DNA from: an uncultured virus (IMG/VR IMGVR_UViG_2873412701_000001)
Lineage: Duplodnaviria > Heunggongvirae > Uroviricota > Caudoviricetes
Virus record (IMG/VR): IMGVR_UViG_2873412701_000001
DNA: 64,000 nt
Direction: 5' to 3' (one strand)
Shown: positions 3,923-44,118 of the stretch, in pieces
Layout: each line of letters begins with the position of its first letter
How positions within the stretch are numbered: the stretch's first letter is position 1
Notes under the pieces: generated by a model
What the model was told of the DNA's origin: nothing
What the model saw: only the letters and a program-made list of their open reading frames with translations
The model's database searches: none
Made by a program: the position numbers and the translations under genes

Positions 3923-4178
3923 GCCTCAAGTCTGGCCGACAGTTGGCCTACAGGGGGCCGCTATGCCGCTGCTTTTTGGGGCGGAAGGGTCGAGGAGCGT
4001 AAGTACCCCCGCGACGCTGCGAACGTCCGGGGGCGTGGGCCACCTGAGAAAGGCAGGCAGTCACCATGGGTCTATCACGAACGCTCGAACGAGTGAGAGC
4101 CGCATTCCGGCGACGCACACCAGGCAGGCACAGGCGCTCCGCGCTGACCCAGGAAGCGCCCTGGGGTGGTGCCCAGTG

Positions 4179-4379
4179 ATGACCATCGCTGTGTACCGGA
4201 TCGACCCGCAGACAGGCGCTCAGACCCTCGTACGCGCGCAGCACACGGTGAAGCCTGCGAGCGTGCCGGATCTCTCCAGCGAATACCCACCGTGCGCCTG
4301 CCCGCGCCACAGGGGCAGCGAAAGCAGACTCCGCACTCTGCTGGCCGAAGCGAACCGACGTAGCAGGGGGACGCTGTGA
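4179..4379 (+). CDS. Small protein with CxCxxH motif, divergent from the XRE gene
   Basis: MTIAVYRIDP...PPCACPRH; stop overlaps the next start. Confidence 0.55.
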   Translation: MTIAVYRIDPQTGAQTLVRAQHTVKPASVPDLSSEYPPCACPRHRGSESRLRTLLAEANRRSRGTL

Positions 4380-4636
4380 CGCGCTCGATCATCAGGGCCG
4401 CTGAGTGGACGCTAGGGCCGGAAACCGCCCAGGGTGCTACGCAGGGCATCTACTCCGCCGAGTGCATCACGTGTGGGGCCCAGGCTCAGCCAACTGACAA
4501 TGACCGCTTGCCAGTTGAGGTCTGGACGTTGAAGCACACGGGGCTGAATCCGACGCACCGGCAGTTCAAGGCCACGACGGAGACTTTCTGGCGCGTGACT
4601 CCGACTGACGGCAACCCGTACCGCGAGAACGACTGA
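4376..4636 (+). CDS. Small zinc-ribbon protein (DUF7848-like)
   Basis: C-x2-C...W.LKHTG.NP.H; common partner of Streptomyces XRE genes. Confidence 0.7.
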   Translation: MTRSIIRAAEWTLGPETAQGATQGIYSAECITCGAQAQPTDNDRLPVEVWTLKHTGLNPTHRQFKATTETFWRVTPTDGNPYREND

Positions 4637-5214: not shown

Positions 5215-5250
5215 TGCCAGTCACAGGCCCTACGGGTTGTCCGCGCCGAC
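5215..5250. other. Hybrid att junction of the left element
   Basis: Minus strand GAC AAC CCG TA|G GGC CTG TGA, where TAC GGC CAY CCN is expected. Confidence 0.6.
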
Positions 5251-6718
5251 CGAGATGAGGGCCAACCGTGGAGCCATCGCACGTATCAGTCCAGGGTCCT
5301 GGTAGGCCGAACCATGGTGGGCGACCTTCACCACGTCCACGGCTCCCAGCGCCGCGGCCTCCGGTGATCCCGCCAGTTCCCGCTGGCCCGGTGGCTCCAG
5401 GTCGCCCAGGAGCAGCAGGGTCAGCCCGGCCGAGCGGACGAGCATGGTCACGCTGGCGTCGTTCGGCCCGTCCGGTGCGGCGGCGTCGGCCGGTGGCCAC
5501 AGCACCCGCCAGGTGAGGCTGCCCGTGCGGCGCTCCTCCCCCGCCACGGCCCGGGTCAGCGGGATCCGCCGGTACGCCGCCTCCCTGCGCACGAACTCGG
5601 CCTGTTCCTCGGGCTCCTCGAAGCCGGTCGCCGCGATCGCCCCCACCGCACGCCCTCGCAGCACTCCCGGCAGCCCCATCACGTGGTCGGCGTGGAAGTG
5701 GGTGAGGACCACGAGCGGGATCCGGGTGATGCCGAGTGCCGTGAGGCAGCGGTCGACCGACACCGGATCGGGACCGGCGTCCACGACCACTCCGGCGCCG
5801 TCGCCCGCCGCGAGGACGCTCGCGTCCCCTTGCCCCACATCGCACATCACCAGGTGCCAGCCCGGCGGCGGCCACCCCGTGATCACCCTGGTCAGGGGCG
5901 GTGGCTGCACCACGACCAACAGAAAGGCCAGCAGGCAGGCACCCACCAGATACGGATGGCTGAGGAGGCGCCGCCCGATCAGGACGACCACCACGGTGAC
6001 CAGGACGAGGAGCAGCGCACCGGTCCAGCTGCCCGGCCAGTCCACTCCCGCGCCGGGCAGCGACGCCCCGGTGCGGGCGATGTCCGCGATCCAGCCGGCG
6101 GGCCAACTCGCGCACCAGGCAAAGCACTCGGCGACGGGCATCGCCACCGGGGCCGTCGCCAGGGTGGCGAACCCCAGCACCGTGGCCGGGGCCACCGCGA
6201 ACTCCGCCAGCAGGTTGCACGGCACCGCCACCAGGCTCACCTTGGCCGACAGCACGGCGACGACCGGCGCGCACACCGCCTGCGCGGCTCCCGCCGCGGC
6301 CAGCGCCTCGGCCGGACGCGGTGGCACCCGGCGCCGCTGGAGCGCGGCGCTCCAGCGCGGGGCGAGGATGAGCAGCGCTCCGGTCGCGAGGACGGACAGC
6401 AGGAAGCCGTAACTGCGGGCCAGCCACGGGTCGTACAGGACCAGCAGCAGGACCGCCGTCGCCAGCGCGGGGACGAGGGACCTGCGGCGTCCCGTCGCGA
6501 TGGCCAGCAGCGCGATCGCACCGCACGCGGCGGCCCGCACCACGCTGGGTTCCGGCCGGCACACGATCACGAACCCGAGCGTCAGCGCACCACCCGCCAG
6601 CGCGGTCGCCCGCAGAGAGATGCCGAGCCGTGGTGCGAGTCCCCGTCGCTCGGCCCGCTGCGCCAATCCCGGCGGTCCGATGAACAGGGCCAAGAGAATC
6701 GTGAAGTTGGCCCCTGAG
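5230..6718 (-). pseudogene. comEC: Internal fragment of ComEC/Rec2 DNA-uptake protein, interrupted at both ends
   Basis: SGANF, PSVVRAA, GFLLSVLAT, metallo-beta-lactamase motifs DVGQGD, THFHADH, NDAS, GDLE, KVAHHGS, ISVGADNP. Confidence 0.93.
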
Positions 6719-6759
6719 AATATGTACCGGACAGGTGAGTCGGTCGCTATCCTCAGGCC
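6700..6759. other. Hybrid att junction of the prophage plus integrase promoter
   Basis: comEC similarity ends at S-G-A-N-F, about 40 bp before the integrase ATG. TATCCT (6748-6753) is placed like the -10 box of a leaderless mRNA. Confidence 0.7.
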
Positions 6760-8301
6760 ATGCCGATCGCGCCCGAATACCTCCATCTGGTCTACCCAGA
6801 CACGGTCTTCCACGCCCTGCTCTACGGCCGCGCCTCCCGCGACCCCCGCAAAAAGGGCCGCAGCGTCGGCGACCAGCTCGACACCGGACACGAACTCTGC
6901 GACGCCAACGGCTGGCCCGTCGCCGAAACCTTCCGGGACATCGACCGCTCTGCTTCCCGCCACGCCCGCCGGACCCGCGACGACTTCGAGGCACTCATCG
7001 CCGCCATCGAAGCGAAGAAGGGCCGCATCGTCGTCGCCTTCGAAGCCTCCCGCTACTACCGGGACATCGAGGCATACATCCGGCTGCGGAACGCCTGCAT
7101 GGCCAACGACGTCCTGCTCTGCTACAACGGCCAGGTCTACGACCTCTCCAAGCGCGAGGACCGCAAAGCCACCGCCCAAGATGCCATCGCCGCCGAGGAC
7201 GAAGCCGAAGGCATCCGCGACCGCGTACTCCGCTCCACCCGCGCCCAGGCCAAGAAAGGTCTTCCCCACGGCCGCCTCCTCTACGGGTACGCACGCCGCT
7301 ACGACCCCGACACCGGCGACCTCATCGAGCAGTACCCCCACCCCGAGCAGAGCGCCATCGTGCTGGAGGTTTTCGAGCGGGTCGCCGCGGGTGAGACCGA
7401 GTACTCGATCCTCCAGGACCTTCGGACGCGCGGCGAGCGGACGCCGGGGCAGGAGTGGGGCTACTACCACTTGCCGAACATGCTGCGGAACGTCGGCTAC
7501 AAGGGCCGCCGCCTGCACCGCGGCGAGGACTTCGGGGAGGCGACGTGGCCGGCGCTGGTGCCGGAGGAGCTGTTCGAGCAGGTGCAGGAGATCATCGGGG
7601 CTGAGTCGCGGAACACGGTCCGGGACTATGCGGTGAAGCATCTGCTGTCGGGGATCGCCCGCTGCGGCGAGTGTGACGATCACCCGCATCTGCGTGTGGG
7701 GAAGTCGCGCGGCTATCTGACGTACGGATGCTCGGCCAAGTTCGACTCGCAGATGAACAAGGACAAGCTCGACGCGTATGTCGAGGAAGCGGTCGTGGAG
7801 TGGCTGGGATCGCGGGCCGCGGTGGCTGCGTTCCAGTCGGACGAGCAGGGCAAGCGGGCCGAGCGGGCACGCGCCCGGCAGAAGGCGTTGCAGCGGCAGT
7901 TGGACGAGGCGCGGGAGATGTCGGCGACGTTCAAGGAGGACGGGGTGACGCCGCGCTTGTCATTGGCGTCGCTGGCGGTTCAGGAGGACCGGCTGGTGCC
8001 GCAGATCGAGGCGGCGCGGCGCGAGGCTCAGGAGATGGACGCGCCGCCGCTGGTGCGCAGGTTGGTCGGCCGGCCGGATGTTCAGGAGGTCTGGGACGAG
8101 GAGTTGACGATCGAGCAGCAGCGGACGGTGCTGCGGGCGGTGGTCAACATCCGTTTGAACAGGGCGAGGGCTCGGGGTGTGCGCTCGATTGAGCCAGGCC
8201 GGGTCACGCTGCGGTTCTTCGGGCAGCCCGGGTTCAGGGACCAACCACGTTATGTCCGCGCGACCTCTCCCGCTCCGGCTGCTGCTGAGGGAACGGAATG
8301 A
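6760..8301 (+). CDS. Large serine recombinase (integrase)
   Basis: YGRAS catalytic motif, DxDRSASR, recombinase domain, LLSGIARCGEC zinc ribbon, coiled coil. Confidence 0.95.
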   Translation: MPIAPEYLHLVYPDTVFHALLYGRASRDPRKKGRSVGDQLDTGHELCDANGWPVAETFRDIDRSASRHARRTRDDFEALIAAIEAKKGRIVVAFEASRYYRDIEAYIRLRNACMANDVLLCYNGQVYDLSKREDRKATAQDAIAAEDEAEGIRDRVLRSTRAQAKKGLPHGRLLYGYARRYDPDTGDLIEQYPHPEQSAIVLEVFERVAAGETEYSILQDLRTRGERTPGQEWGYYHLPNMLRNVGYKGRRLHRGEDFGEATWPALVPEELFEQVQEIIGAESRNTVRDYAVKHLLSGIARCGECDDHPHLRVGKSRGYLTYGCSAKFDSQMNKDKLDAYVEEAVVEWLGSRAAVAAFQSDEQGKRAERARARQKALQRQLDEAREMSATFKEDGVTPRLSLASLAVQEDRLVPQIEAARREAQEMDAPPLVRRLVGRPDVQEVWDEELTIEQQRTVLRAVVNIRLNRARARGVRSIEPGRVTLRFFGQPGFRDQPRYVRATSPAPAAAEGTE

Positions 8302-22262: not shown

Positions 22263-23243
22263 ATGGCCTGGTTCGCCCTCGATGACGGGTTCGACACGCA
22301 CCCCAAGGTGCGCAAGGCGGGCAACGCTGCCGTCGGCCTCTTCGTGCGCCTCGGCGTCCACGCGACCAGGCACCTCACCGAAGGGCACCTCGACGGCGAC
22401 ATCGTCCGCAGCTACGGCACCGGACCCAACATCAAAAAGCTCGTCGCCGTCGGCATGCTCCACGGCCACGGCCACGACTGCATGCGCTGCCCGCAGCCGG
22501 CCGACGGCGACTTCGTCATCCACGACTACCTCGACTACAACAAGTCCCGCGCGCAGATCGAGGCCTCCCGTGAAGCGGCCCGGAAGCGGCAGAACCGGGG
22601 TCGGGAAACGGCCCGCGCGAACCGGAATGCACGCGATTCCGAGCGCGTTTCGAGCCCGATTCGGAGCCGAAACGGATCCGATTCCGCTCCGAATCGTGAA
22701 CGAAATGACCCCCTGTTTGATGATGAACCCGCAGGTCACGACGACATGTCACGGCGTGACACCCATGAGGGTGTCACGGTTGTCCCCTCCCCTCCCCTCC
22801 CCTCCCATAACTACGACGTGGCTGATGTAGGTGGGGGAACTACCGGTAGTAGGGCCGCTGATCTTGACGCTCACGCGCCCACACCGATCGAGATCGACGG
22901 CTTCCAGCTGACCGACGCCATGCGCCGCTGGGCCAAGCGCGACGGCTACTCAGACCTCGTCGACATCGACCACGCCACCGCCCAGTTCGTCTCGCACTAC
23001 CGCTCCACGGCCGCCCGCCGCTCCTCGTGGCCGGACGCCTGGCAGAAGTGGATCCGCGACGACGCCAAGCGCGCCACCGAACGCGGCACCCGCACCCAGC
23101 AGGGCGCATTCCTCGTCGCCCTCCCCGGCGGAGGACAAGCACCACCACGCCCCTCCACCACCGACGCCCGCGTCCAAGCCGCCCTCGACCTCGGCCGGCA
23201 GATGCAAGCCGAATACGACGCCGCCCACAAGGAGGCCCAGTGA
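22263..23243 (+). CDS. Phage replication initiator-like protein
   Basis: MAWF.LDD.F..HPK N-terminus, IHDYLDYN, C-terminal W...W..W domain. Confidence 0.75.
   Translation: MAWFALDDGFDTHPKVRKAGNAAVGLFVRLGVHATRHLTEGHLDGDIVRSYGTGPNIKKLVAVGMLHGHGHDCMRCPQPADGDFVIHDYLDYNKSRAQIEASREAARKRQNRGRETARANRNARDSERVSSPIRSRNGSDSAPNRERNDPLFDDEPAGHDDMSRRDTHEGVTVVPSPPLPSHNYDVADVGGGTTGSRAADLDAHAPTPIEIDGFQLTDAMRRWAKRDGYSDLVDIDHATAQFVSHYRSTAARRSSWPDAWQKWIRDDAKRATERGTRTQQGAFLVALPGGGQAPPRPSTTDARVQAALDLGRQMQAEYDAAHKEAQ
22600..22810. other. Putative replication origin inside the initiator gene
   Basis: Clustered GATTC/GAATC, TGTCACGG repeats and palindrome, (CCCCT)4. Confidence 0.45.
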
Positions 23244-34216: not shown

Positions 34217-35107
34217 GTGAACACCCCGATCGTCCGCGCCGTCACCCGCAACGGCCGCACCCACCACGTCGAAGAGCCGGCACAGCTCCCGCCGCTCACC
34301 CCCGACGAGATCATCATGCGGGCCGTCGGGGTAGCCACCGCGATCGTCGTTACCGGCGCGCTCGTCTGGTCCACCGTCAGCGTCGGCGCGATGCTCGGCA
34401 AGGTCGCGCCCGAGTGGGCCGCCTACATGATCGCCGGGGTGTTCGACCTGACGTGGATCGTCGCGATGGCCATCGAGTACGTCCTCCGCTTCGAACCCGC
34501 CCGGCAGAAGATCCCCAAGCGGATCGGCTGGCTCTCCCTCTTCATCTCCATGGCCGCGATCTTCACCCACGGGGCGCTCCTCGAAGCCAAGTGGATCGGC
34601 CTGTTCGGCGCCCTCGTCTCCGCCCTCGCCAAGGGTCTGTGGTGGCTGACGATGTACGTCACCAGCCGCCAGCTCGACAAGGACACCCAGGCCTGGCTCA
34701 ACGCCGAACTCGGCGAGGTCCACGCCCGGCGGGCCGAGCAGATGGCCGTGGCGAAGGTGGAGCGGGAGCGGGAGCGGTACGCCCTGAACCAGCCGCCCGA
34801 ACCACCGCAGCTCACAGTGAGCCGGACCGTGAACCCGCCGCAGTCCACGCCGGTTCAGGCCGCGGTTCAGGCCCCCGACCAGCTCGCGAACCAGATCGAG
34901 GCCACCCCCGAACCGGCCCCGGTTCAGACGGCTCAGGCCGCGGTCCGCCCGGTCGAGACCAAGGACCAGGTCGCTGAACTCCACCAGCGCCTCAAGGTCG
35001 GCGAGCACATCACCAAGGCCCGCGCCGCGGAGATCCTCGGCATCCCCGAGTCCACCGCCTACCGCCGTCTCACCGCCGCCCAGGCCCTCCTCAACACGTA
35101 CCGCTGA
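34217..35107 (+). CDS. SpdB/DUF2637-like spread protein (4 TM, coiled coil, HTH)
   Basis: WST.S.G..L...AY..AGVFDL.WI; C-terminal AAEILGIPESTAYRRL. Confidence 0.75.
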   Translation: MNTPIVRAVTRNGRTHHVEEPAQLPPLTPDEIIMRAVGVATAIVVTGALVWSTVSVGAMLGKVAPEWAAYMIAGVFDLTWIVAMAIEYVLRFEPARQKIPKRIGWLSLFISMAAIFTHGALLEAKWIGLFGALVSALAKGLWWLTMYVTSRQLDKDTQAWLNAELGEVHARRAEQMAVAKVERERERYALNQPPEPPQLTVSRTVNPPQSTPVQAAVQAPDQLANQIEATPEPAPVQTAQAAVRPVETKDQVAELHQRLKVGEHITKARAAEILGIPESTAYRRLTAAQALLNTYR

Positions 35108-35166
35108 CCGCCCGCCCGGCCCCCGCCACCGTGCGGGGGCCCGCCTGTCTCTGCGGAGCCCACACC

Positions 35167-36924
35167 GTGAAGATCGACCGCACCGACATCGTCACCGCCA
35201 TCACCGTCCCCGGCCTCGTTTCCGCCGCCGCGCTCACCGCAGACGGCATCTACGGCACCACCGCCGCCGCCATCGAGTTCGGCACGGCCATCGCCGCAGG
35301 CTCCCTGTCGTGGACGTCGTTCTCGAAGAAGTGGCCGCCCTCCCTCGCCTGGGGCAGCCTCGCCCTCGCCGGCGTCTCCGGACAGGCGTGGCTCACCGGC
35401 ACGGTCGGAGGGTTCGCCGCCTGGTACGGGTACGCCATCAGCGCGGCCGCCGTGTTCGCGGCGATGGTCAAGCACCGGCACGACACCCGCCACGACCAGA
35501 TCAAGTTGGACCACGAGACCGCCCGCCTGGAGACCACGCTGATCCGGCAGCAGATGGCCCAGCATGCCCTGGTCCAGAAGACCACCCCGGAACCGGTCCA
35601 GTCCGGACCGGACCTGACCGGGCGGACCGTGGAAGAGACCAGGCTGCGGACCGTGGTCCACGAACTGTTCGCCGCCGAACTGCCGGGCTGCACCGTGGAA
35701 CGCACGCGGACCGGGTGGACTGCGGTCCTGGACCTGCCCGTGAGCCTGGACCGGGACAAGCTCCGGTCCGGCTGGCCCAAGGTGGCGTCCGGGATGGGCG
35801 TGGCCGGGGAGTTCATGCTGGAGGACGGGGCGCTCACGAACCAGCTCGTCGCCAAGTTCATCGACGGCGACCCCCTCGCCGACGTGGTCCCCTACGTCCG
35901 GTCCACCGCAGCCCGGTTCACCGAACCGGTCCTCCTCGGCGTGGACCGGTTCCTGAACTCGGTCTGGCTCGACCTGGCCTACAACCACACCCTGATCGCC
36001 GGTTCATCCAAGTTCGGAAAGTCCACGCTGGTCCGGTCCATCGCGGTCCAGCTCGCGGACCGGCCCGACGTCGTCCTGTACGGCATCGACATGAAGCCCG
36101 GCGCCCCCGAACTCACCCCCATGCTGCCGATCCTGCAAGACCTCGCCACGACCGCCGAGCAGGCCCACGCCCTCCTCGACTGGCTGAAGGCAGAACTCGC
36201 CGAGCGCGGAGAGATTCTCGCCAAGGCCGGCGACCAGGAATGGGACCCGGCCAAGCACGGCCGCCCGGCGATCTGGGTCATCGAGGACGAACTCGCCGAG
36301 CTGGTCCGGCAGGGCGACGACGGGCCGTGGAAGAAGAACCCGGCGTCGAAGAAGAACCAGTCACTGCTGGCGCTCCTGCGGTTCGCCGGCATTCACAAGC
36401 TGTCGGCCACACAGCAGCCGTCCAGGCAGGTTTTCGGAGGGACGACGGACGCCCGCGGGAACTACACGAACCGACTGTCCACGCGCATGAACGATGCGGA
36501 CCACCGCCGGTTCATTTTCGGCAACACCCCTGGTTGGGAGCCTGGGAAGCTGGACCAGCCGGGGAAGTTCCTCCTCCAGTCGCCGGTCCATCAGGTCGCG
36601 GCGCCGTACAAGGGGATGTGGCTGACGGGGGAGGAGTTCAAGGCGGAGGTCGCCCGGATCGGCGCGACGACGGTGCGGGCGCCGGTCGGCAAGCGTCTGA
36701 TCCTCCCGGTGTCCGGCGCGACGAATCAGGAGAAGGTACGGGCCGCGCTCACGAAGTACGGGAACGCCACCCGCCGGGAGCTGGAGATAGCGGCCGGCCT
36801 GGACGAGCGGCAGGTGCTGAAGGCGATCGAGGGCCTGAAGCCGGACGTGGAACGGACGGACGCGGGGACGTGGCGGATGGTGCCCGCAGGGGCGTGGGAA
36901 GCGCAGGCGGTCTCCGTGCCCTGA
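35167..36924 (+). CDS. TraB-like FtsK/SpoIIIE DNA translocase
   Basis: N-terminal TM helices, Walker A GSSKFGKS, IDMK, Walker B WVIEDE, ATQQP, C-terminal winged HTH. Confidence 0.88.
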   Translation: MKIDRTDIVTAITVPGLVSAAALTADGIYGTTAAAIEFGTAIAAGSLSWTSFSKKWPPSLAWGSLALAGVSGQAWLTGTVGGFAAWYGYAISAAAVFAAMVKHRHDTRHDQIKLDHETARLETTLIRQQMAQHALVQKTTPEPVQSGPDLTGRTVEETRLRTVVHELFAAELPGCTVERTRTGWTAVLDLPVSLDRDKLRSGWPKVASGMGVAGEFMLEDGALTNQLVAKFIDGDPLADVVPYVRSTAARFTEPVLLGVDRFLNSVWLDLAYNHTLIAGSSKFGKSTLVRSIAVQLADRPDVVLYGIDMKPGAPELTPMLPILQDLATTAEQAHALLDWLKAELAERGEILAKAGDQEWDPAKHGRPAIWVIEDELAELVRQGDDGPWKKNPASKKNQSLLALLRFAGIHKLSATQQPSRQVFGGTTDARGNYTNRLSTRMNDADHRRFIFGNTPGWEPGKLDQPGKFLLQSPVHQVAAPYKGMWLTGEEFKAEVARIGATTVRAPVGKRLILPVSGATNQEKVRAALTKYGNATRRELEIAAGLDERQVLKAIEGLKPDVERTDAGTWRMVPAGAWEAQAVSVP

Positions 36925-42567: not shown

Positions 42568-44118
42568 GTGACCGCGGCCGTCGCAACCGCCGGCTACCTC
42601 GACGGGCTGGACGCCGAGACGTTCAACCTCCACGCGTACCTCGCCCAGTTCAACCCTGATCTCCTCGCCGACCCCGAAGGGCGCCGCACTCTCACCCGCC
42701 TCGACCCGCTGCTGTTCGCTCTCACCTATCTCCGCCACCACCTGAAGGACACCGCAGGCCGCATCTCCTTCGGGGACGCTCATCTCGACTGGTGCCGCGC
42801 CGGCCGACGCTGGGTTCGTCCCCCGTCAGAGCCGGCCGCCGAGCGGGACGCGTACATCGCGCCCCGGAACACCGGCAAGAGCACCTGGTGGTTCCTGCTC
42901 CTGCCGATGTGGGCTGCCGCCCACGGTCACGTCCGGTTCGCTGCCGCGTTCGCCGCGTCCGCCACCCAGGCCGAAACCCACCTGGCCACCTTCAAGCGGG
43001 AGATCGACAACAACGCGCTCCTGCGCCGCGACTACCCGGACCTGTGCTCCCCGGCGAAACGGCCGTCCGGCGCGAACGTCGCCGACACGCAGAACATGTA
43101 CGTCGCCAAGTCCGGATTCGTGTTCGCGGCCCGCGGTATCGACAGCTCCAGCCTCGGCATGAAGGTGGAGGAGAAGCGGCCCGACCTGCTGCTGTGCGAC
43201 GACATTGAGCCGGACGAGTCGTCGTACTCGGCGGAGCTGGCGCGGAAGCGGCGTACCACGCTGGTCGATGCGATCTTCCCGTTGAACGTGTACGCCCGCG
43301 TCGTGATCTGCGGGACCGTCACCATGCCGGGCAGCATCATCCACCAGCTGGTCCGGGCCGCGAAGGGCGTCCAGGCCGAGGAGTGGGTTCGGGAGGAGGG
43401 CATCCGGGCGCACCACAGCCTGCCGATCGTGCAGCGCCCGGACGGCACCGAGCGGTCGATGTGGCCGGCGAAGTGGCCGATGACCTATCTGGCGGAGACT
43501 CGGCACACGAGGTCGTACGCGAAGAACATGGCGAACGATCCGCTTGCCGCGGACGGGGCGCTGTGGACGCCGGAGGACTTCCGCTACCCGGGCGAGGACG
43601 GCCCGGACCCTGCGACGCACATGATGCTCAGCATCGATCCCGCGGTCACCGCGAAGAAGTCCAGTGACTTCACCGGGCTGGCGGTGGTGTCGTGGTCGGT
43701 GCAGCGGCAGCGGTGCACGGTGCATGCGGCGTGGGCGGTGAAGCTGACGCCGGGGCCGCTGCTGCGGGATCGGGTGCTGGCGATCCTGGACGAGTTTCCG
43801 CAGATCGGGCTGATCTTGCTGGAGGTGAACCAGGGGCACGACACGTGGCTGTCGGTGCTGCATCACATGCCGGTGAAGGTGAAGCCGGTGTCGCAGTCGG
43901 AGCCGAAGTTCGCGCGGGCCGAGGGCGTGTTGAACCACTACCAGCGGGGTCGGGTGCTGCATGCGCGGAAGTTGCCGGAGCTGGAGCAGCAGATGTGCAC
44001 GTTCCCGAAGGGCCCGAACGACGACATGGTCGACGCGGTGGGCAGCGCCGTGCGGCGGTTCATTCCGGCGGCGAAGAAGCAGGAGCCGCCGAGCGCGAGG
44101 CGAGCCAGCTACGTCTAG
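42568..44118 (+). CDS. Terminase large subunit
   Basis: APRNTGKST, RPDLLLCDD, IDPA...SDFT, E.NQG, FP.GPNDD.VDA. Confidence 0.92.
   Translation: MTAAVATAGYLDGLDAETFNLHAYLAQFNPDLLADPEGRRTLTRLDPLLFALTYLRHHLKDTAGRISFGDAHLDWCRAGRRWVRPPSEPAAERDAYIAPRNTGKSTWWFLLLPMWAAAHGHVRFAAAFAASATQAETHLATFKREIDNNALLRRDYPDLCSPAKRPSGANVADTQNMYVAKSGFVFAARGIDSSSLGMKVEEKRPDLLLCDDIEPDESSYSAELARKRRTTLVDAIFPLNVYARVVICGTVTMPGSIIHQLVRAAKGVQAEEWVREEGIRAHHSLPIVQRPDGTERSMWPAKWPMTYLAETRHTRSYAKNMANDPLAADGALWTPEDFRYPGEDGPDPATHMMLSIDPAVTAKKSSDFTGLAVVSWSVQRQRCTVHAAWAVKLTPGPLLRDRVLAILDEFPQIGLILLEVNQGHDTWLSVLHHMPVKVKPVSQSEPKFARAEGVLNHYQRGRVLHARKLPELEQQMCTFPKGPNDDMVDAVGSAVRRFIPAAKKQEPPSARRASYV

Follow-up and report, generated by a model that had tools for sequence, protein, structure and literature searches.

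This study describes a dense array of short DNA words that is written, through the choice of synonymous codons, into a gene of a Streptomyces prophage. The array was found in a 64,000-nucleotide stretch of the uncultured virus record IMGVR_UViG_2873412701_000001 (this whole stretch is called the window below), and the element that carries it is an integrated siphovirus-type prophage, neither a plasmid nor an actinomycete integrative and conjugative element. The main array, defined by motif counts and codon-level null models, spans positions 35508-36061 and contains 21 copies of GGWCC, where W is A or T, together with six copies of the related word GAACC/GGTTC. It occupies codons 114-299 of a plus-strand gene (35167-36924) for a 585-residue translocase of the FtsK/SpoIIIE family ('TraB-like'; Pfam, PHROG 1358). 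Upstream of it, on the same strand, an open reading frame (ORF; 34217-35107) with a GC content at third codon positions (GC3) of 0.94 encodes a 296-residue SpdB-like membrane protein that ends in a predicted helix-turn-helix (HTH) tail. We are close to certain that the array is a selected cis-acting DNA element, and comparison of related loci suggests that its sites are probably read by the tail of the SpdB-like protein. The compound proposal, in which we infer both the binding and the function, is that sites for this tail serve to tether or load DNA for the translocase pump, and in our judgement it is evenly balanced between right and wrong.

The original prediction, made from the sequence alone, had counted about 21 GGACC/GGTCC between 35508 and 36061. 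By start positions the number is exactly 21, made up of 10 GGACC and 11 GGTCC, and the string that it quoted as an example sits at 35592-35631. The whole window contains 209 GGWCC (123 GGACC and 86 GGTCC), or about 1.6 per 554 bp outside the array, and when it is divided into 500-bp bins, one bin holds 17 sites and the next 7, with all others holding no more than 4. The array takes up the 5' half of the translocase gene, where its sites fall into codon frames 0, 1 and 2 in the numbers 1, 6 and 14, mostly as NNG-GAC/GTC-CNN, CGG-ACC/TCC or GGA-CCN. Because the sites are spread over three frames, a peptide repeat provides no explanation for them, just as the prediction had argued. The enrichment also persists against codon-preserving shuffles. 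Synonymous permutation within the gene gave a mean of 9.2 sites and a maximum of 18, permutation within the region a mean of 11.8 and a maximum of 20, and resampling from the codon usage of the genes in the window a mean of 6.6 and a maximum of 15, so that the observed 21 was not reached in any of these three nulls (0/5000 each). In fact, the protein sequence permits at most 26 GGWCC, of which 21 are in use. The amino acid sequence itself makes a mild contribution, since about 5-8 GGWCC are expected in this protein and its distant relatives. Unbiased scans against codon resampling rank GGACC/GGTCC first among all 5-mers (21 against 9.0) and GGACCG first among all 6-mers (14 against 5.0). In a family-wise test, which takes the highest count of any k-mer in any window under synonymous permutation, the main array was matched in 0/200 permutations.

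Counts of single-base variants within the array help to define the word. GGWCC is found 21 times against 5.9 expected and GAACC 6 times against 2.6, whereas GGSCC shows no enrichment (3 against 2.3) and CGACC is depleted (2 against 5.5). Since GGSCC remains at expectation, the centre of the word must be W, and the variant counts together indicate that G-ending rather than C-ending codons have been chosen ahead of GAC or GTC. When the sites are oriented as GGACC, a pyrimidine precedes the word in 18 of 21 cases, and G follows at +5 and at +6 in 14 of 21 cases each, a preference that is due in part to the fact that pentamers abut one another. Abutting pentamers form 10-mers such as GGACCGGACC and GGTCCGGTCC, and 10-bp palindromes occur as GAACCGGTCC at 35590 and 35923 and as GGACCGGTTC at 35943. 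The 8-mer YGRACCGG occurs 36 times in the window, with 27.5 ± 4.8 expected, and 15 of these copies lie within the 717 bp of the main array and a smaller upstream cluster. The claim that the motif occurs in both orientations stands for this oriented 8-mer, which is found on both strands; for the pentamers it loses its meaning, because GGACC and GGTCC are reverse complements of each other and orientation can be assigned only with the flanks. A left/right bias in the orientation of sites inside the array was seen by eye only. No clear period of 10-11 bp was detected in the spacing of sites over 27 non-independent sequences, in which the commonest distances are 5 and 15 bp.

The array is conserved among related loci as a pattern of words. 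Our homologue set consists of 8 genome loci and 21 viral-contig loci with 72-93% amino acid identity, which give 27 distinct genes after deduplication, and these carry 8-21 GGWCC in the homologous stretch. By codon resampling on each homologue's own protein, 22 of the 27 stand at 0/500, four at 1-2 of 500 and one, L038, at 137/500; thus, the array recurs in 26 of the 27. Some sites are nearly invariant, with 35648 and 36035 present in all 27 homologues and 35943 and 36057 in 26, whereas others are gained or lost, as at 35702 and 35717, where 22 homologues have sites that the window lacks. Five sites keep the word while their centre switches between A and T, either through synonymous GGA/GGT or through a Ser/Thr exchange. 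The pairwise difference at four-fold sites falls to 0.30 in the array, compared with 0.40 before it and 0.42 after it, with an amino acid divergence of 0.18 in the array and 0.17 after it, and synonymous codon entropy is 0.54 bits in the array against 0.78 (p=1.4e-4). Sparser conserved GGWCC continue 3' of the array (36243-36589), with starts at 36243, 36303, 36498, 36552 and 36585 that are kept in 24, 17, 24, 17 and 19 of the 27 homologues, respectively.

A smaller cluster of GAACC/GGTTC lies upstream, in DNA that codes for the linker of the SpdB-like protein. The prediction had placed about eight of these words between 34785 and 34926, and eight are confirmed at 34786-34925, with an extended form YGAACCRG, against a window background of 2.3 per kb, although the cluster does not reach significance family-wise. 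Motif-specific synonymous permutation gave a mean of 1.5 and a maximum of 5 sites (0/5000), and the sites are built from GTT and GAA, codons that this gene, at 94% GC3, seldom uses. Each of the 22 homologous loci examined has a GAACC/GGTTC cluster in the corresponding relative position, at 2-7 per 150 bp. We consider it a weaker companion of the main array.

Between the two arrays lies the DNA that codes for the HTH tail of the SpdB-like protein (34937-35104, plus strand; aa 241-296, with the predicted recognition helix at aa 278-295 containing STAYRRL), which we call type A. STAYRRL is present in 22 of 22 loci and the last ~50 residues are conserved, whereas the membrane domains are only 30-49% identical to that of the window in 7 of the 8 loci aligned. 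The membrane domains comprise at least three divergent types, of which that of L010/L017 reaches no more than 30-36% identity with the window's protein across the full alignment. All of these divergent types carry the same type A tail, indicating that the gene is a mosaic of cassettes. Related loci with other tails provide a comparison, because the linker just upstream of each tail type carries a dense word of its own. Type A goes with GGWCC/GAACC. Type B tails (…ADSIRRTAKRLGNTYL; L055, L072, L084 and L038) go with CCGGAC/GTCCGG at a density of 10-14 per 200 bp, with copies on either strand and in all three frames, and type C tails (…SAATAKRYL; L081 and L082) with CTGAGC/GGCTCA or GGCTCA(G) at 6-9 per 200 bp. 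Type D (L073) goes with GGACA at 10 per 200 bp, type E (L074, L078 and L079) with GCGAACA, with 16-19 CGAAC per 200 bp, and type F (L086) with GGCTCA(G) at 8 per 200 bp. Type F belongs to the same HTH family as type A, with the recognition helix ATAGRRL instead of STAYRRL and a different word.

The words for types B to F were chosen after the data had been seen, which in itself weakens the comparison, and we therefore ran family-wise synonymous-permutation tests on the genes concerned, leaving out L075-L077 as apparent duplicates of L074. For all ten non-A genes the any-k-mer test gives P<0.05 at k=5 or at k=6, and for eight of them P=0.000 in at least one test; the 14 control genes of the window all fail both tests. 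The translocase genes of type B loci add a second observation. With CCGGAC fixed beforehand from the linker array, nt 340-900 of the gene, which is the stretch that carries GGWCC in type A, contained 9 copies against 3.3 expected (2/1000) in one gene and 7 against 2.6 (1/1000) in another. A further observation concerns L038, which falls inside a nine-row group of otherwise array-bearing genes with 100% support in a quick tree (SH-aLRT, the Shimodaira-Hasegawa-like approximate likelihood ratio test, only). In L038 the membrane protein has a type B tail at its end, together with a CCGGAC array, and GGWCC in the translocase gene is down to 8, not above the codon null. In this lineage tail A appears to have been swapped for tail B, after which the GGWCC array would have decayed. 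Taken together, these comparisons suggest that the array sites are probably read by the Spd-like tail.

Several results weigh against this interpretation. The GAACC/GGTTC word was likewise picked after the data had been seen, and family-wise the linker cluster of the window is not significant (P=0.26 for 5-mers and 0.16 for 6-mers); of four type A linkers tested, only that of L002 reached P=0.04. Among the other types, L081 passes at k=6 only (P=0.037) and L073 at k=5 only, and for L073, where 9 of the 10 sites lie in a single frame on a single strand, part of the signal comes from a 'DT' repeat. The CCGGAC sites in type B translocase genes are not significant family-wise (P=0.42-0.66), and the type C word has no site at nt 340-900 in either locus, with 1 and 0 sites in the whole gene. 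L038 (1295-2945, on the same contig as L080) retains a type-A-like HTH on a separate T5orf172 ORF, and L086, the type F locus, has no FtsK-like gene within 3 kb downstream. Tails B and E match no HTH family, and the tree of translocases places the gain of the large array on just one branch. Furthermore, linker and tail DNA are adjacent and may be inherited as one cassette, so that their co-variation may in part reflect linkage; for this reason, only the codon-level tests and the sites in translocase genes speak independently.

A direct alternative is that the array is a loading site of the kind represented by clt (cis-acting transfer locus) and TRS (TraB recognition sequence), read by the translocase's own C-terminal winged helix-turn-helix (wHTH), as with plasmid TraB. 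The array lies within the translocase's own gene, the protein ends in a confidently predicted winged helix (aa 517-581, encoded at 36715-36909, plus strand; AlphaFold2 (AF2) and VIA-align), the oriented flanks yield the 8-mer YGGACCGG, and TraB of pSVH1 reads 8-bp repeats via helix 3 (as cited in PMC3583192). However, two to three helix-3 variants exist within the clade (RQVLKAIEGL, KQVLDAARAL or KQVRDAAGAL) together with different wings, and all of these groups have GGWCC arrays; L009, for example, 93% identical to the window, still carries 17 sites with a wHTH of the other type. Conversely, the sister loci L055, L081, L082 and L084, which came up in searches with the upstream protein and whose translocases are 57-61% identical over their full length, contain just 2-4 GGWCC across the homologous 561 nt, and neither a 5-mer nor a 6-mer array in the gene reaches significance; helix 3 of L055 is exactly that of the window and that of L082 the alternative type. 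Neither do any of 11 more distant translocase genes (29-39% identity) contain an intragenic array. A motif shared across helix-3 variants, and its lack in sisters with the same helix, mean that the array does not follow the translocase DNA-binding domain. The expectation that homologues with different recognition helices would carry different motifs therefore holds for the Spd-like tail types and fails for helix 3 of the translocase. The prediction had proposed a cis-acting binding array embedded in the genes, with either of the two HTH domains as its reader. The array is borne out indirectly by codon selection, site turnover, low synonymous divergence and the lack of RNA covariation or of a hidden ORF (below), whereas the choice of readers appears to have been only half right: the wHTH of the TraB-like protein is now a distinctly unlikely candidate, and the HTH of the SpdB-like protein is favored, since the word changes with the tail across five or six types.

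The pair of tail and array may also serve a role other than DNA movement, such as autoregulation by an intragenic roadblock (Kil-Kor-like), a partition or stability tether similar to that of sps and SpdA2, or exclusion of related phage DNA. The sites do lie inside the reader's own operon, SpdA2 binds a palindrome in its own gene and affects stability rather than transfer (PMC4170104), unregulated traB is toxic on plasmids (PMC4447253), and no GntR-type regulator was found among the neighbouring ORFs scanned. In addition, L086 combines tail and array with no FtsK-like gene nearby, and the existence of several orthogonal tail/motif types is reminiscent of incompatibility or immunity types. Nevertheless, operators normally consist of a few sites at a promoter, whereas here ~30 extend across 1.3 kb of coding sequence, the Spd-like and FtsK-like genes adjoin each other in types A to E, and a prophage that is integrated beside host comEC has no obvious need for plasmid-type partition, all of which leaves such a role rather unlikely in our view. 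It is very improbable that no protein binds the array and that it is a by-product of amino acid repeats and codon bias, of mRNA structure or of a hidden overlapping gene. The excess is partly driven by the protein, given the roughly 6-8 sites expected from it against a background of 1.6, and the RNA folds somewhat better than its shuffles (z=-2.5), but every codon-preserving null stays below 21, three frames are occupied and the 14 control genes have no such arrays. RNA structure was rejected because the covariation term is -0.15 kcal/mol (RNAalifold, 27 sequences), with a double change in only 6 of 98 pairs of the consensus fold and centre bases that flip with no compensating partner. A hidden overlapping ORF was rejected because at most 13 of the 27 sequences keep any given alternative frame open across the array. 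The least probable explanation, which we regard as barely tenable, is that GGWCC is a restriction or modification target and the cluster a decoy or modification hotspot. Its 5-bp palindromic core is like type II targets, and we take GGWCC to be an AvaII/SinI-type site. But neither a methyltransferase nor a restriction enzyme turned up among those ORFs of the window that were scanned with Pfam and PHROGs, the GAACC variants are enriched too, the word occurs at an ordinary rate elsewhere in the window, and sister phages carry the non-palindromic words CCGGAC, GGCTCAG and GCGAACA in the equivalent place, tied to tail type.

Returning to the Spd-like tail as the probable reader, we propose a mechanism in which GGWCC and its GAACC variants would act as about 30 short sites of low specificity, written into coding DNA by codon choice. 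Many weak sites of 5-8 bp could together form one landing pad of high avidity that would be unique in the phage genome, and the exchangeable C-terminal HTH tail of the membrane-anchored SpdB-like adaptor may bind this pad. The membrane protein would thereby keep phage DNA tethered to the membrane, next to the FtsK-like hexameric pump. Such tethering would mark the DNA as a substrate, in the way that clt serves TraB in Streptomyces plasmids, and the pump would move phage or excised prophage DNA, for example across hyphal cross-walls. The chance that the array serves loading or tethering for translocase-driven DNA movement comes near to even or just short of it.

The known systems closest to this arrangement are found in Streptomyces plasmids. 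Their clt loci are repeat arrays beside or overlapping tra genes (PMC4447253, PMC3583192); for example, the clt of pWTY27 takes in 16 bp of traA and that of pIJ101 has 5-bp repeats (PMC3583192; PMC4447253). The phage array resembles them in that short repeats (5-9 bp) are clustered at the gene of an FtsK-like double-stranded DNA translocase, with a cognate transfer-apparatus module as the putative reader. It differs from them in lying wholly inside coding DNA, with 21 + 8 sites over 1.3 kb compared with about 4-9 repeats in 50-175 bp, in its presence on a tailed prophage, and in its likely reader, which would be the tail of the membrane partner and not the wHTH of the translocase. Moreover, the phage core is palindromic with sites both ways, whereas clt consists of direct ~8-bp repeats in the same orientation. 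The prediction had already considered a bidirectional intragenic array unusual beside the direct 8-mers of clt, and the occurrence of YGRACCGG on both strands agrees with that assessment, as these are not direct repeats.

A second comparison is with SpdA2 of pIJ101, which binds sps palindromes in the coding region of spdA2, where the sites are also visible as an amino acid motif (PMC4170104). Here the likeness is that a DNA-binding protein of the transfer and spread set has sites embedded in its own coding sequence. The two differ in that sps is a 12-bp palindrome in 1-3 copies and SpdA2 is a soluble protein with a zinc-finger-like region, whose deletion affected stability and not transfer. 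In pSVH1, the spread operon encodes SpdB2, an integral membrane protein that interacts with TraB and is reported to bind double-stranded DNA non-specifically (PMC4447253). Homologues of SpdB2 have been noted on actinophages, for which spread of phage DNA across cross-walls was suggested (PMC4447253). Unlike SpdB2, the phage protein appears to have an exchangeable, sequence-reading tail with cognate arrays, and it scores below the cut-off for DUF2637.

Further parallels come from chromosomal systems. FtsK and SpoIIIE are guided by FtsK-orienting polar sequences (KOPS) and SpoIIIE recognition sequences (SRS), respectively, and RacA-ram, Noc with its Noc-binding sites (NBS) and ParB-parS are tethers with arrays of sites. 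In all of them short words or clusters tell a translocase or a tether which DNA to act on, and a tether links DNA to the membrane or the pole. KOPS are polar 8-mers that are read by the translocase's own gamma domain. The sites of these systems are chromosome-wide or lie in non-coding or mixed DNA, and none is known to combine a dense intragenic array with a swappable tail.

The two proteins bear only partial resemblance to the plasmid families after which they are described. The SpdB-like protein consists of a hydrophobic N-terminal half, a low-complexity P/Q/A linker and a predicted tri-helical C-terminal HTH, and a crude hydropathy scan places hydrophobic segments at aa 31-61, 68-90 and 103-121, with a possible fourth. 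It matches PHROG 35187 and 29416, neither of which has an assigned function. There is for the window protein no Pfam match above cut-off, PF10935 (DUF2637), which we take to be linked to SpdB2, included; in four of eight membrane-part proteins scanned, DUF2637 was found sub-threshold at 14-21.5 bits against a cut-off of 22.8. Among the homologues listed, precomputed PF10935 is on 1 of 120 and PF27080 on roughly a quarter, and all named homologues are 'hypothetical' or bear clearly automatic labels. The type A tail was modeled by AF2 from 19 sequences with a pLDDT (predicted local distance difference test) score of 88 and helices at H8-20, H27-34 and H38-55. It has only sub-threshold Pfam matches to HTH_23, HTH_8, Xre-like and sigma-70 region 4 on the same residues, and Foldseek returned nothing at E<=0.001, its weak rows listed being mostly DNA-binding helical domains. 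In some Spd-like genes (P0038-P0045 and P0053), the membrane part and the type A HTH are separated by a T5orf172/MUG113 (GIY-YIG-like) domain, and public homologues of 425-434 aa have this fused membrane-T5orf172-HTH form.

The translocase matches FtsK_SpoIIIE (PF01580; E=7e-13, 48.9 bits against a cut-off of 24), has a Walker A motif, GSSKFGKS, at aa 279-286, and finds its best PDB match by sequence in 6o1w, a DNA translocase coupling protein. Against the NCBIfam model plasmid_TraB (NF041214) it scores 28.8 bits, below the cut-off of 800. Since both proteins fail the curated cut-offs, 'traB-like' and 'spdB-like' are resemblances and not memberships. The first 100 residues of the translocase are Ala-rich and helical with a maximal Kyte-Doolittle value of 1.58 against a threshold of 1.6, in a part of low AF2 confidence. 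The full-length model is poor (pLDDT 43), with the C-terminus alone usable; there the local pLDDT is 74-85 with an H-H-H-strand-strand topology, and VIA-align gives Z scores of 7-8.5 over 56-62 residues with MarR, IclR, ROK and Z-alpha winged helices, a generic fold match. The wHTH variants (helix 3 and wing; 36673-36921 in the window) are exchangeable and shuffled independently of the remaining gene, and genes of the sister clade share both types. At the S. iakyrus locus (L006/L013; G004:C3:550833-551000) a second, partial wHTH-coding copy lies just 3' of the translocase gene, corresponding to aa 517-572 with 50% identity.

Relatives of the translocase were also found in other settings. L007 (DATCWW010000006.1), a 4.5-kb contig labeled as a metagenome-assembled genome of Gemmatimonadales, encodes a translocase of 77% identity with 14 GGWCC in its array and probably represents an actinophage or prophage fragment assigned to the wrong bin. 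Five Streptomyces 'plasmids' of 129-133 kb (H26-H30) encode FtsK-like proteins 32-37% identical to that of the window; in size they match phage Gilgamesh (129 kb), which supplies the best phage match with its gp10 (H1), and they may be phage-plasmids. In Streptomyces phage Mischief19 (L022), 15 GCAAC/GTTGC are packed into 500 bp (4051-4550) close to genes 75-77. The annotation of one of these genes names an HTH DNA-binding protein, and the FtsK-like gene of this phage lies a few kb from the cluster, which may be an unrelated site array. In protein searches of phage and plasmid collections, homologues had no more than 37% identity, and the three of these inspected were without an array. The DNA search of the phage collection gave zero matches.

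As for its genomic setting, the prophage adjoins a host comEC-like gene (5230-7689, minus strand). Pfam and PHROGs assign to the genes that follow a Cro/CI-type HTH, RecE/RecT, RusA and a replication initiator (22263-23243); then come the SpdB-like and FtsK-like pair and, after it, the terminase (42568-44118), portal, scaffold, capsid, tape measure and tail genes. The upstream SpdB-like protein is also present on a 10.3-Mb contig. The 59-bp spacer between the two genes (35108-35166) contains a GC-rich inverted repeat, GCCCCCGC…GCGGGGGC, which could form a hairpin. Inside the initiator gene, a comparatively AT-rich, near-perfect palindrome of 58 bp (22648-22705) has 29-nt arms that are 83% complementary with no spacer, and is a candidate for the phage origin, which would then lie in the gene of its own initiator. 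We rejected the array itself as a replication origin because the initiator gene with this palindrome is 12 kb away and no AT-rich stretch adjoins the array, where GC is 0.66-0.72. A packaging site was likewise set aside as less likely, with the terminase 6.5 kb downstream.

FtsK-like and SpdB-like genes have been noted in Streptomyces phages, and no tested function for them was found in the passages of the literature covered; a recent preprint states that some Streptomyces phages encode FtsK-like proteins and, in the part covered, nothing further. Our literature search, whose partial coverage leaves out Vogelmann 2011 and Smith 2013 and may bear on novelty, returned no account of such arrays or of tail/motif types in phages. 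The spread of phage DNA through the mycelium has so far been an idea with no cis site at which to test it, and the 554-bp array supplies one. The array, a 56-residue candidate reader and the natural panel of tail/motif types together provide material for swap experiments, and one lineage, L038, appears to record the decay of the array after its reader was replaced. The array is, in addition, a clear example of a DNA code, regulatory or structural, that synonymous codons overprint on a protein code, with 21 of 26 possible sites in use. More broadly, we offer as a tentative view, somewhat more likely to fail than to hold, that temperate Streptomyces phages may carry a conjugation-like module, consisting of an overprinted pad, an adaptor and an FtsK-like pump, that would move their own double-stranded DNA genomes between hyphal compartments. 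The tail/motif types would then be orthogonal 'self' labels, comparable to the incompatibility or partition types of plasmids, and may evolve by cassette swap followed by the rewriting of synonymous sites.

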